Below, in pieces: positions 3,112-5,041 of a stretch of 64,000 nucleotides of DNA (position 1 is the stretch's first letter; the number at the start of each line of letters is the position of its first letter). Both the position numbers and the translations under genes were made by a program. The stretch lies in contig NZ_WJBU01000018.1 in the NCBI RefSeq assembly GCF_009646335.1, forward strand, positions 1 through 64,000, written 5' to 3'. The notes beneath the pieces were generated by a model. The model saw only the letters and a list, made by a program, of their open reading frames with translations, made no database searches and had not been told where the DNA came from. The stretch comes from Caenimonas koreensis DSM 17982 (GTDB taxonomy: Bacteria; Pseudomonadota; Gammaproteobacteria; Burkholderiales; Burkholderiaceae_C).

Positions 3112-3188
3112 AGGGGCGTAAACGAGCGGCTTCAGTTACCTGGCTTTGAACCAGGGTATCGCAGGTTCGAATCCTGCCGCCCCCGCCA
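3112..3188 (+). tRNA. tRNA-Gln (anticodon UUG) with an A1-C72 mismatch
   Basis: Gln-type 3-bp D stem AAC/GTT with an 11-nt loop, anticodon stem CCTGG/CCAGG perfect with loop CTTTGAA, T arm GCAGG-TTCGAAT-CCTGC, 3' acceptor CGCCCCC, G plus CCA. The first acceptor pair is A-C. The 3' end overlaps the rtcB ribosome-binding region. Confidence 0.6.
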
Positions 3189-3211
3189 ATTTCTACAATC
3201 AAGGAGGTTCT

Positions 3212-4414
3212 ATGGAACTCATGAAGAACGTCCAGGCATGGACTGAAGGCGTCGAAATCGAATGGGACGCCATGCAACAGATCCGCAATATCGCGGGCCT
3301 GCCTATCGTTGCGGGGCACATCGCTGTGATGCCCGACGTGCACCTCGGCAAGGGCGCCACTGTCGGAACCGTGGTGCCAACGCGTGGCGCGATCATCCCT
3401 GCTGCTGTGGGTGTCGATATCGGCTGCGGCATGGCCGCGCTGCGCACGCAGCTGAAGGCGGCGCAACTGCCCGAGAGCCTGATGCAAATCCGGTCGGCGA
3501 TCGAAGCAGCCGTGCCTGTCGGCTTCGACGTGCACGACGTCGAGCTCAACCCAACGCACCAAGGGCCGCATGGTCGCGACCTGCGCACCAAGATGCAGGC
3601 GCTGTATGCGCGCTTCGAGACGCTCGCGATTCTGACGACGCTGCGCCGCGTGGATGCCCGCCGTATCTGGCGCCAGCTCGGCACCCTCGGCGGTGGCAAT
3701 CACTTCATCGAACTGTGTCTCGACGAGGCCGGCGACGTGTGGGTGATGCTGCACTCCGGCTCGCGCAACATCGGCAAGACGATTGGTGAAGCGGCGATCG
3801 GCATGGCGCGGGAAGCTGCGCATCACGCTGGTATTGGGTTGCCTGACAAGGATCTCGCGTGGCTGAACGAAGGCACCGCCGAGTTCAACCAGTACGTCGA
3901 GGCGTTGCAGTGGGCGCAAGACTACGCAGCGCTGAACCGCGAGCTGATGCTGTTTCGGGTGCTGAACGCGTTGCGTGCAACGCTTGCGCATCCGATCAAG
4001 GTCACCACCGAAGTCGTGAATTGCCATCACAACTATGCAACGATCGAAGAGCACTTCGGCTCGAAGGTGTGGATTACGCGCAAGGGCGCGGTGAGCGCGC
4101 GCGAGGGCCAGCTCGGGATCATCCCGGGCTCCATGGGCACGCGCAGCTACATCGTGCGTGGCCGCGGCAATCCGCTCTCGTACTGCTCTTGCAGCCACGG
4201 TGCCGGACGACGCATGTCGCGCGGCGCCGCCAAGCGTCACTTCAACCTCGATGCGCTGGCCGCGCAAACGGCGGGTGTCGAGTGCCGCAAGGACGCAGGC
4301 GTGCTGGACGAGATTCCAGGCGCCTACAAGGACATCGACGCCGTGATGGCCGCCCAGGCCGATCTCGTCGAGGTCGTTCACACCCTCAAACAGGTGCTGT
4401 GCGTGAAGGGCTGA
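3212..4414 (+). CDS. rtcB: RNA-splicing ligase RtcB (3'-phosphate/5'-hydroxy RNA ligase)
   Basis: 400 aa. Hallmark segments MPDVHLGKGATVGTVVPTRGAIIPAAVGVDIGCGM and the C-terminal GSMGTRSY, SCSHGAGR matching RtcB active-site regions. AAGGAGG RBS 7 nt upstream of the ATG. Directly follows the tRNA array. Confidence 0.9.
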   Translation: MELMKNVQAWTEGVEIEWDAMQQIRNIAGLPIVAGHIAVMPDVHLGKGATVGTVVPTRGAIIPAAVGVDIGCGMAALRTQLKAAQLPESLMQIRSAIEAAVPVGFDVHDVELNPTHQGPHGRDLRTKMQALYARFETLAILTTLRRVDARRIWRQLGTLGGGNHFIELCLDEAGDVWVMLHSGSRNIGKTIGEAAIGMAREAAHHAGIGLPDKDLAWLNEGTAEFNQYVEALQWAQDYAALNRELMLFRVLNALRATLAHPIKVTTEVVNCHHNYATIEEHFGSKVWITRKGAVSAREGQLGIIPGSMGTRSYIVRGRGNPLSYCSCSHGAGRRMSRGAAKRHFNLDALAAQTAGVECRKDAGVLDEIPGAYKDIDAVMAAQADLVEVVHTLKQVLCVKG

Positions 4415-4477
4415 CCCGGAGAGTGAACCGGTGTCGGCACCTCTCGCCGCACCGGCACCCATCTACTGGAGAAACCC

Positions 4478-5041
4478 ATGAAATCAACTGTCCTGCAACT
4501 GGACATCCAGGGCACTCCGCAAGCCTGGATCTCGCTCGAGCAGGCAGCGCTGCACTACGCTGCCGATTCGGTGGCGTGGGCTGACGGCGCCGGCCCGCTC
4601 GCCGTGCTGCGTGGCGGCTGGAACAGCGTGACAGGTCTGCAATCGACTCTGTCGGTGCACCCGATCGTCGCTGTGCGCGGCCATTCACGTGTCAACCTGT
4701 TCGACGTACCGGTGTGCGTCACCAAGGGCAAACTGCTGCGCCGCGACCGGCTCACCTGCGCGTACTGCGGCGAGGTTCATGACGAGCGCGTGCTGCAGGT
4801 CGAGCACATCGTGCCTGAGTCCCGCGGCGGTCCTTACTCGTGGATGAACCTCGTGACGGCATGTGCCGCGTGCAATGCGCGCAAGGCCGACCGCACACCC
4901 GAGGAAGCAGGCATGCCGCTGTTGTACCTGCCGTACGTGCCGAACCGGTTCGAAGGCTTCCTGCTGGAAGGCCGTCGCATCCGCGCCGATGTGCACGAGT
5001 GGCTGGCCGCACGGTTGCCCAAACATTCGCGACTGCAGTGA
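4478..5041 (+). CDS. HNH endonuclease-domain protein with an uncharacterised ~90-aa N-terminal domain
   Basis: HNH motif CAYCGEV...VLQVEHIVPESRGG...NLVTACAACNARK (Cys pairs with His/Asn catalytic core). GGAG RBS. 64 bp after rtcB on the same strand. Confidence 0.8.
   Translation: MKSTVLQLDIQGTPQAWISLEQAALHYAADSVAWADGAGPLAVLRGGWNSVTGLQSTLSVHPIVAVRGHSRVNLFDVPVCVTKGKLLRRDRLTCAYCGEVHDERVLQVEHIVPESRGGPYSWMNLVTACAACNARKADRTPEEAGMPLLYLPYVPNRFEGFLLEGRRIRADVHEWLAARLPKHSRLQ

Follow-up and report, generated by a model that had tools for sequence, protein, structure and literature searches.

A tRNA Array, rtcB, an HNH Nuclease Gene and a Band-7 Gene in a Candidate Stress-Inducible Operon of Caenimonas koreensis

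Organization of the Locus

The stretch of DNA analyzed here (the window) comprises the first 64,000 nucleotides (nt) of contig NZ_WJBU01000018.1 from Caenimonas koreensis DSM 17982, and our subject is the segment 3112–5041, which carries the last gene of a tRNA array, the RNA ligase gene rtcB and a gene for an HNH endonuclease. The initial annotation regarded this combination as a possible module for breaking and resealing tRNAs or for withstanding ribotoxins. Our analysis predicts that rtcB and the HNH gene do not stand alone and belong to the tail part of a single operon (~1451–6740). The order in this predicted unit is as follows: a divergent repressor gene, a promoter, a leader open reading frame (ORF), a terminator, 12 tRNA genes, rtcB, the HNH gene, an RNA of ~450 nt, a Band-7/SPFH gene, and a second terminator.

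A promoter and terminator scan of the region 900–7000 returned a single sigma-70-like promoter at 1451–1479, while clear plus-strand terminators were found at only two places, 1754–1788 (after the leader) and 6716–6730 (after the SPFH gene). The second of these, a terminator-like hairpin with a T-run on the plus strand (6716–6740), forms the right end of the conserved module: nucleotide homology to three relatives (L001, L002 and L003) continues without a break from ~3012 as far as ~6740 and no further, placing the right edge at ~6740. Core chromosomal genes follow on the right flank, namely an acyl-CoA ligase gene, parC, a GGDEF gene, an SLT gene and parE. A tblastn search of the 64-kb window with RtcR, RtcA, Ro60/Rsr and RlaP as queries gave no match, bearing out the initial remark that rtcA and rtcR are not nearby and extending it to rsr.

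The rtcB and HNH Genes

The rtcB gene (3212–4414, plus strand, ATG at 3212) encodes an RNA 3'-phosphate/5'-OH ligase of 400 amino acids (aa). The protein matches the Pfam RtcB profile (PF01139, E = 6.8e-128) at all of its positions (1–426 of 426) with 427.9 bits against a cut-off of 27, and the PHROG family phrog_1075, 'tRNA splicing ligase', with E = 8.5e-145. RtcB joins 3'-phosphate or 2',3'-cyclic-phosphate ends to 5'-OH ends in a reaction that uses GTP and Mn2+. The gene begins directly after tRNA-Gln, as initially reported, at a spacing of 23 nt (3189–3211) where 24 nt had been given; the gap contains AAGGAGG at 3200–3206. The same array–rtcB–HNH order, with rtcB orthologues of 79–89% identity, was found in L001, L002, L003, L056 and L067, and the ratio of non-synonymous to synonymous substitution rates (dN/dS) of rtcB against these same-position orthologues is 0.10–0.19.

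The HNH gene (4478–5041, plus strand) encodes a protein of 187 aa with an IshB-like architecture, a PLMP-like domain followed by an HNH nuclease domain. The HNH_5 match lies at residues 94–148 (E = 9e-15), so that the earlier assignment of an HNH endonuclease following rtcB holds. Residues 1–90 matched no Pfam family, again in line with the initial annotation, whose description of this N-terminal domain of ~90 aa as unknown is superseded: the domain is conserved across the family and seemingly PLMP-like. In a diverse alignment of 55 sequences it shows the pattern L..LD..G.P..W....A........V.W..G.......GG.N...G..S, followed by a zinc-binding HNH core in which C94, C97, H110, N124, N133 and K136 are invariant. 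C129 and C132 are conserved in at least 90% of the 55 sequences and invariant among 25 close homologues, and a C-terminal helical tail makes up the third conserved part of the protein.

The N-terminal domain appears to resemble the PLMP domain of IsrB/IscB, with a motif reading G-x-P-x-x-W, and this likeness is possibly new. Foldseek against the PDB returned matches to the HNH domain alone. A sequence-profile search of the PDB likewise did not detect the N-terminal domain; its weak matches to the KOW region of Spt5 (E ~0.02–0.04) were disregarded.

The HNH protein is 100% identical to its NCBI record. A database search recovered 1422 relatives; the best 120 share 74–86% identity and measure 182–203 aa (almost all 187–192). 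With HMMER, 187 clusters at 50% identity were recovered at E ≤ 1e-30 and 4045 at E ≤ 1e-10. The dN/dS of the HNH gene, 0.17–0.27, is similar to that of the neighboring rtcB and SPFH genes (0.15–0.30 for the latter), indicating that the HNH protein, as all genes of the module, is under purifying selection.

Distribution and Gene Neighborhoods of HNH Relatives

A scan of one genome per species identified 576 species genomes that encode a relative of the HNH protein. Neighborhood counts given here refer to the 80 closest HNH loci from other species, all from Burkholderiales apart from two apparently mis-binned metagenome-assembled genomes, as analyzed with tblastn and ARAGORN. A recurring layout emerged, consisting of a divergent repressor gene, a leader region of ~500–750 nt, a same-strand tRNA array and the HNH gene, with the b7a-type RNA, the SPFH gene and rtcB as optional parts. 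A same-strand tRNA gene lies at most 300 nt upstream of the HNH start in 65 of the 80 loci, most often at 57 nt (typically 52–67 nt), and in 5 further loci only rtcB separates the array from the HNH gene, as in the window. With 70 of 80 loci linked to an array, the tRNA–HNH adjacency is not due to chance. The initial annotation had named a random occurrence of HNH homologues away from tRNA arrays as the observation that would speak against a module, and this was not what we found; the combination of tRNA genes, ligase gene and nuclease gene is real and recurrent.

An rtcB gene lies within 10 kb of the HNH gene in 39 of 80 loci, and in 24 of the 51 loci for which 8 kb or more could be retrieved on either side. 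It occupies one of three positions: directly before the HNH gene, after the SPFH gene, or inside a canonical rtc locus that starts right after the HNH gene. This canonical locus, present in many relatives, reads rtcR(-)/rsr/yrlA/rtcB/rlaP/rtcA; Pfam confirmed RtcR, RTC, Ro60-vWA/TROVE and RlaP, and YrlA reached the Rfam gathering score in L005 and L012. The window copy has neither RtcR nor RtcA beside rtcB. The initial annotation had considered that rtcB might belong to a standard rtc locus elsewhere while the present copy held a conserved chromosomal position. The former applies to many relatives. The place of the module in the chromosome differs between genera, as parC is never nearby in the other loci. 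Most of the 51 loci with 8 kb or more of flank on either side carry the module on a contig of more than 100 kb.

Several more distant homologues are found among tRNA genes on plasmids and in phages. On the Burkholderia plasmid pM7012, an HNH gene of 46% identity follows 37 tRNA genes, and here too an HTH gene is divergent and a small ORF is present; a Variovorax megaplasmid has a 45% homologue among 33 tRNA genes, and a Mycobacterium intracellulare plasmid carries an HNH gene inside a 28-tRNA array. The Salicola jumbo phage SCTP-2 encodes a 40% homologue within its tRNA region, and large IMG/VR phages encode homologues of 42–49% in tRNA-rich regions. The connection to phages and mobile elements made initially is confirmed in so far as relatives occur on plasmids and in large phages, while an anti-defence role is speculative in the literature (PMC12803027). 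Profile comparisons with hhalign linked the family to Anabaena All8564 (probability 99.8%, E = 1e-27) and to the HNH protein of the M. intracellulare array (E = 8e-32), in both cases covering the N-terminal domain and the HNH core. Full-length homologues of actinobacterial plasmids (35% identity) and of phages RsoM2USA and Atu_ph07 are not linked to tRNA genes, and the tRNA link therefore does not extend to the whole wider HNH family.

Two side observations were made in these neighborhoods. On plasmid 2 of Variovorax sp. SRS16 (L088, 11826–12870), a peptide-chain-release-factor-like gene and a SecB gene follow an array with a 45% HNH homologue, representing further translation- or ribosome-related cargo near arrays. 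Among the IMG/VR uncultivated viral genomes, three predicted proviral contigs (L092–L094) start exactly at an HNH homologue of 72–73% identity; this boundary is probably either an artefact of prophage calling or a prophage integrated beside the module.

The tRNA Array and Its Conserved Elements

ARAGORN identified the array as 12 plus-strand tRNA genes at 1911–3188, in the order Asp, Thr, Glu, Asp, Phe, Arg, Ile, Pro, His, Leu, Leu and Gln, the last being tRNA-Gln(ttg) at 3112–3188. Their Rfam tRNA scores range from 48 to 66 bits, and the 3' CCA is encoded by all 12. By the definition of Tran et al., a tRNA array has 20 or more tRNA genes and a density of no less than 2 per kb (PMC4758250); the present array reaches this density with 9.4 tRNA genes per kb (12 in 1.28 kb) and stays below the count. 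Array size among relatives ranges from 0 to 25 tRNA genes, with 20–25 in 5 of the 80 loci. The same-strand, closely spaced and non-periodic tRNA genes, together with the adjacent HNH endonuclease gene and a transcriptional regulator, characterize the locus as an L-array with accessory genes.

A conserved plus-strand element with three hairpins (2300–2380) lies between tRNA-Glu and tRNA-Asp. Its 47-nt core (2328–2374, GCGGAAACCGGCCGCAAAGATAGGGCGGCGCCGGAACTCGTCACCGG) was found at 85–100% identity in 54 of the 80 loci (85–98% over the full 42–47 nt). The core is better conserved than the tRNA genes, is single-copy and always on the same strand, and is kept even in the Variovorax arrays of one or two tRNA genes. 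It usually precedes the next tRNA gene by 10–30 nt, with distances of 43–335 nt in five loci. The hairpin in front of the core covaries, and the two hairpins of the core itself are invariant. The element could be an RNA motif or a DNA or protein-binding site.

Two further stretches of the array region are shared with relatives. The 149-nt spacer after the first tRNA-Asp (1987–2135, plus strand) is 70–88% identical over its full length in L003, L004, L045, L046, L051 and L058, and part of it is matched in L055. The spacer is predicted to fold strongly (−67.6 kcal/mol) and corresponds to neither a tRNA nor an Rfam family. Right before the first tRNA gene, a hairpin-forming element at 1845–1905 (plus strand; TTAACAAgTTGCCGCGAGGC..CCGGTACTGGCCGG..GCCTCGC) is present in 17 loci and could serve as a processing signal or a second promoter.

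The Control Region

The gene divergent from the array promoter (1040–1423, minus strand) encodes a CI/XRE-like protein of 127 aa that matches phrog_12107, 'transcriptional repressor' (E = 4e-9), and has no Pfam or NCBIfam match. A homologue of 48–63% identity occupies the same divergent position in 51 of the 61 loci with enough upstream flank. On the 3' side of this gene, a small and apparently frameshifted ORF of the SEC-C type (DPCPCGS..., 719–935, minus strand) was observed, the DNA of which is homologous to inserts within the arrays of L012 (9284–9446) and L067 (8381–8597).

The sigma-70-type promoter (1451–1479, plus strand) consists of TTGACA and TACAGT separated by 17 nt. A palindrome (GTTAAGAGTCTTTAC, 1462–1476) overlaps the −10 hexamer and is a putative operator for the repressor. 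In an alignment of 22 loci from the repressor gene to the array, the −35 element (TTGAC), the palindrome GTAAAGAnTCTTTAC and the −10 element (TACAGT) are kept, as are an AGGA Shine-Dalgarno sequence, a GTG start codon, a CCGGG motif near the end of the leader ORF, an aligned stop codon and a near-invariant terminator.

In the window, the leader ORF (1541–1729, plus strand, with AGGA at 1531–1534) starts with GTG and encodes 62 aa ending in ...HQHPGQQDV*. The frame is open in about 45 distinct loci despite indels, with lengths of 34–72 aa, and both ends of the peptide are conserved: the N-terminus reads M-K/N-T..RP..G..AFVR and the C-terminus ..HPGEGSA*. The stop codon is located 27–32 nt 5' of the terminator across loci.

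The end of the leader overlaps a putative attenuator (1709–1798, plus strand), composed of CCGGG (1709–1713), two hairpins, the first of them around the stop codon, and an intrinsic terminator (stem at 1754–1788 and a T-tract). RNAalifold recovered the terminator and the stop-codon hairpin, both with compensatory changes. When the nascent RNA is folded without the 3' arm of the terminator, CCGGG pairs with the 5' arm in 29 of 32 sequences, closing a three-way junction. In this predicted antiterminator, 84% of the alignment cells pair and 12 of 22 pairs show compensatory changes, values that none of 500 shuffles reached. An antiterminator helix longer than CCGGG:CCCGG was considered and rejected, as the flanking pairs are unpaired in 10 and 14 of the 32 sequences and only the invariant 5-bp core is general.

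The natural reading of this arrangement would be ribosome-dependent attenuation, in keeping with published work in which translation inhibitors induced the L-array of Anabaena. A full-text literature search did not find such an attenuator described for tRNA arrays.

The Structured RNA and the Band-7/SPFH Gene

Downstream of the HNH gene, a large structured RNA of the b7a-tRNA type (~450 nt, 5070–5515, plus strand) contains a T-arm minihelix (~5191–5238) and a tRNA-like cloverleaf (5239–5311) that ARAGORN called tRNA-Met. Its further parts are a 5' domain, a GGTC-GAAA-GACC hairpin and a long 3' domain. The spacer of ~510 nt between the HNH and SPFH genes is conserved across genera, and the RNA was found in 23 loci. 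In these, the D and T arms are near-invariant and the 'anticodon' arm varies freely, with identities of Met, Leu, Phe, Ser, Val, Ile, Ala, Glu, Pro and Cys or none that can be called; the acceptor stem of the tRNA-like core is short in most of them. Of the 133 pairs in the whole structure, 84 show compensatory changes, which none of 500 shuffles reached, and 90.3% of alignment cells pair, as against 37–45% when the partners are slid. Rfam 15 has no family for the whole RNA and gave only the tRNA match and a weak match to YrlA.

The Band-7/SPFH gene (5552–6694, plus strand) encodes a protein of 380 aa (Pfam Band_7, E = 6.4e-29). Its orthologues (72–88% identity) follow the structured RNA in 22 of 80 loci. 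We also considered whether the RNA might be an omega-RNA-like partner of the IshB-like nuclease. This is unlikely because the RNA follows the SPFH gene where the genes separate (L005, L023) and is absent from HNH loci without SPFH.

[quoted passage not shown] Going by that summary, the 'tRNA-Met' and the SPFH gene complete this described system, a point that the initial annotation had overlooked.

Interpretation and Alternative Explanations

Proceeding from the gene identities, the operon layout and the conservation of every element, we propose the regulation, the substrates and the role of the HNH protein as follows. With a probability of about 0.58, the segment 3112–5041 would form the protein-coding center of one stress-inducible 'translation emergency' operon (~1451–6740) of C. 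koreensis. The CI-like repressor would keep the promoter shut via the palindromic operator. Ribosomes translating the leader to its stop codon would melt the upstream segment, so that the terminator forms and the operon is off; with ribosomes stalled or absent, the upstream segment would pair with the 5' arm of the terminator, and transcription would proceed through the tRNA genes, rtcB, the HNH gene, the structured RNA and the Band-7 gene. The spare tRNAs may replenish or buffer the tRNA pool, and RtcB, whose known genomic partners are the Band-7 protein and the b7a-type RNA, may reseal tRNA or rRNA that ribotoxins have cut to 2',3'-cyclic-phosphate and 5'-OH ends. The HNH protein, a conserved companion of arrays across phyla, probably nicks or cleaves DNA in a metal-dependent manner and is probably tied to the array; it would act in array maintenance or spread, or as a stress effector, and would not be the source of RtcB substrates. 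A role of the module in tRNA supply and RNA repair, including an anti-ribotoxin function, had been suggested initially and draws support from comparative genomics and from experiments published for homologous systems; the literature ties tRNA arrays, the array HNH gene and rtcB to the translational-stress response (PMC8421152, PMC10272220).

Several points weigh against this interpretation. The 64-kb window is without any tRNA gene outside the locus, so there is no housekeeping set with which the array tRNAs could be compared. The module is not obligate, because some loci lack parts of it: those of Variovorax have one or two tRNA genes (Arg, or Arg and His) and no rtcB within 10 kb, and that of the sister species Caenimonas sedimenti (L045, 9461–11897) has zero tRNA genes upstream of the HNH gene. 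The C. sedimenti locus keeps the leader end, the terminator, the 149-nt spacer, the HNH gene and a downstream rtcB, which means that arrays can shrink to zero while the HNH gene and the control region persist. The only contig on record with the C. koreensis locus (L083) ends ~33 nt left of window position 1 and cuts off the left flank, where a mobile-element context may lie. The putative assignment of the divergent gene as a repressor depends on a single PHROG match. Finally, the closing-helix core CCGGG:CCCGG of the antiterminator is invariant and also encodes Pro-Gly, and here covariation cannot separate RNA pairing from peptide conservation.

A further-reaching proposal is tentative, and we regard it as possible rather than probable. 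The unit could be a self-contained sensor and responder for failing translation, in which the leader peptide (..HPGEGSA) and the three-way-junction antiterminator read ribosome progress and stalling switches the operon on. The HNH protein would then be a true stress effector (e.g., a structured-RNA-binding nickase), and both the large RNA and the 47-nt element would represent functional RNAs, as yet undescribed, that belong to the RNA-repair machinery.

The stronger form of the break-and-reseal idea of the initial annotation, by which tRNA or pre-tRNA would be cut by the HNH protein and rejoined by RtcB in the course of tRNA processing or of a reversible translation shutdown, appears highly improbable. 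HNH (beta-beta-alpha-Me) nucleases leave 5'-phosphate/3'-OH ends, a mismatch with the 3'-phosphate or 2',3'-cyclic-phosphate and 5'-OH ends used by RtcB; in the paradigm for such a cycle, PrrC versus T4 Pnkp–Rnl1, the nuclease leaves 2',3'-cyclic-phosphate/5'-OH ends in tRNA anticodon loops. We know of no HNH-family anticodon nuclease, and none was found in the literature surveyed. The two genes are adjacent, probably co-transcribed and located right after tRNA genes, as the idea demands, and the N-terminal domain of the HNH protein could conceivably bind RNA, since the PLMP domain of IscB contacts structured RNA (PMC10734217). Among relatives, however, rtcB stands immediately beside the HNH gene in only 6 of 81 loci (the window included), and 41 of 80 have no rtcB within 10 kb; array-associated HNH genes occur without rtcB within 10 kb in all Variovorax loci, the same type of HNH protein is found with Anabaena and Mycobacterium arrays, and RtcB belongs to independent RtcR/Ro60/YrlA or Band-7 systems. 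Because the predicted end chemistries mismatch, the HNH gene accompanies arrays with or without rtcB, and RtcB has partners of its own, a break by HNH resealed by RtcB is unsupported.

A rather doubtful alternative regards the HNH protein as a DNA endonuclease of the homing type, comparable to T4 SegB. By cutting within or close to tRNA genes it would promote the copying or horizontal spread of the neighboring array, with rtcB and the other genes as passengers. Such a role was proposed in PMC8421152 and PMC5966550. It would agree with the presence of arrays with this HNH type on pM7012, Variovorax megaplasmids, a Methylibium plasmid, M. intracellulare plasmids and in large phages, with an array content that varies widely between species while the HNH gene stays, and with the lack of a conserved chromosomal position between genera; the near-invariant 47-nt element could be the DNA target. 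Yet the whole HNH protein is conserved at 72–86% aa identity across genera with a constant length of 187–191 aa, and its rtcB- and SPFH-like dN/dS departs from the sporadic occurrence and decay that homing endonucleases typically show. The gene also keeps a fixed position 52–67 nt after the last tRNA gene inside a predicted regulated operon, is retained with arrays down to 0–2 tRNA genes, and in Anabaena is co-induced with a stress regulon (PMC8421152). As between a selfish array-mobilizing nuclease and a selected stress effector, the strong conservation and the fixed operon position favor the latter. It is also unlikely that the unit is anti-defence cargo, that is, a phage, prophage or island unit that outlasts tRNA-cleaving defence systems (of the PrrC, RloC or retron-PtuAB type) through replacement tRNAs and a ligase, with the C. 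koreensis copy as a domesticated or remnant island. The phage-CI-like repressor, an RtcB closest to the phage family phrog_1075 (57–58% identity to the RtcB of Caulobacter and Bordetella phages), HNH relatives in the tRNA regions of jumbo phages, and a left flank that lies beyond the contig end would suit this origin, and tRNA array units have been discussed as putatively anti-defence (PMC12803027). On the other hand, neither an integrase nor a capsid gene nor any further phage gene lies in the visible flank, core chromosome makes up the right flank, and all genes are under purifying selection. Moreover, the family spans 576 species genomes; most of the 51 loci with 8 kb or more of flank on either side are on contigs of more than 100 kb, and many stand beside a host repair operon regulated by rtcR.

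The layout itself speaks for the HNH protein as a functional partner of tRNA arrays that is maintained by selection, not a decaying homing endonuclease, and it ties this protein to the IscB/IshB lineage. The locus bears on three open questions: the functions of tRNA arrays, of their HNH nuclease, and of bacterial RtcB. In Anabaena, the trn operon, HNH, rtcB and slipin genes are linked solely through a shared regulator; here and in hundreds of Burkholderiales species the corresponding parts stand in one predicted operon, often beside an RtcR/Ro60/YrlA operon, and therefore provide independent genomic evidence that the four work together. The compact layout also offers handles in culturable bacteria such as Variovorax, namely the operator, the leader ORF with its attenuator, and the two conserved RNA elements.

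Comparison with Known Systems

The closest counterpart is the L-array of Anabaena sp. PCC 7120 with its regulator TrcR (PMC8421152, PMC10272220). Santamaria-Gomez et al. reported that this array is silent and that translation inhibitors induce it together with all8564 (HNH) and rtcB; they found the HNH gene conserved beside cyanobacterial L-operons and proposed a SegB-like homing role for it (PMC8421152). TrcR represses the trn operon, rtcB, the HNH gene all8564 and the slipin gene alr0740 (PMC10272220). Both systems have a tRNA operon, supernumerary and silent in Anabaena and presumably so here, a dedicated repressor, putative in the window, and an adjacent two-domain HNH gene, and the rtcB and slipin/Band-7 members of the TrcR regulon have their equivalents in the window operon. 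The Anabaena parts are scattered, with the array and HNH gene on a plasmid and rtcB and the slipin gene on the chromosome, whereas those of the window lie in one operon. The repressor is a ribbon-helix-helix protein in Anabaena and CI/XRE-like here, the HNH gene is upstream of the array in Anabaena and downstream in the window, and the leader-peptide/terminator element found here is not described for Anabaena.

Mycobacterial array units (PMC5966550, PMC12803027) likewise combine dense same-strand tRNA genes with an HNH gene and an XRE-type regulator, the latter two in ~87% of the G2 arrays (PMC5966550). They have spread with plasmids and phages and have been discussed, speculatively, as putative anti-defence units (PMC12803027). 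They comprise 26–28 or more tRNA genes with the HNH gene in mid-array, in contrast to 12 tRNA genes followed by the HNH gene here, and RtcB or Band-7 genes are not reported for them in these two studies. Arrays had previously been noted on the Methylibium PM1 plasmid and on Variovorax megaplasmids as well.

T4 SegB is a GIY-YIG enzyme, not an HNH nuclease. Its gene, too, lies amid tRNA genes, and it was proposed to promote array transfer, as cited in PMC8421152. Compared with SegB, the HNH protein described here is under strong purifying selection and belongs to a predicted regulated operon.

The Salmonella rsr-yrlA-rtcB-rtcA operon under RtcR (PMC7790460, PMC4201824) shares with the window the ligase family and the theme of a tRNA-like RNA encoded beside RtcB. 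An operon of this kind, with RtcR, Ro60, YrlA, RlaP and RtcA, itself follows the HNH gene in many relatives. The window differs in having no RtcR, RtcA, Ro60 or RlaP and in placing RtcB under the array promoter, and its RtcB is only ~55% identical to the copies in the canonical rtc loci of relatives. The RtcB/Band-7/b7a-tRNA system, as far as the bioRxiv summary describes it, is present here with RtcB (3212–4414), the tRNA-like unit (5239–5311) and the Band_7 protein (5552–6694). Measured against that summary, only the tRNA-like core matches the described b7a-tRNA; in the window this core sits within a ~450-nt RNA that has another two covarying domains, and the system is joined to a tRNA array and an HNH gene.

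Accounts of the OMEGA/IscB family (PMC11610941, PMC10734217) give the name IshB to a PLMP plus HNH architecture of ~180 aa. The HNH protein fits that usage in part, with an IscB/Cas9-type HNH domain in a protein of ~180 aa that has no RuvC. It differs from IshB as named there in that no IS200/605 context or guide (omega) RNA is evident at the locus, where rtcB and SPFH are the flanking genes, and in that the adjacent structured RNA co-occurs with the SPFH gene, not the HNH gene. The control region recalls classic leader-peptide attenuators and the toiL upstream ORF (PMC12121999), in which a short translated ORF would let ribosome occupancy decide downstream expression. In the present case the controlled genes would be tRNA and RNA-repair genes, and the mechanism is read from sequence alone.

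Taken together, the window locus is a Burkholderiales form of a known system. It is distinguished by the presence of all parts in one predicted operon, by the leader/terminator element, and by its fusion to the Band-7/b7a repair system, or in relatives to the RtcR/Ro60/YrlA system. The leader-peptide attenuator, the PLMP-like (IshB-type) N-terminal domain of the HNH protein and the large structured RNA are possibly its novel components.

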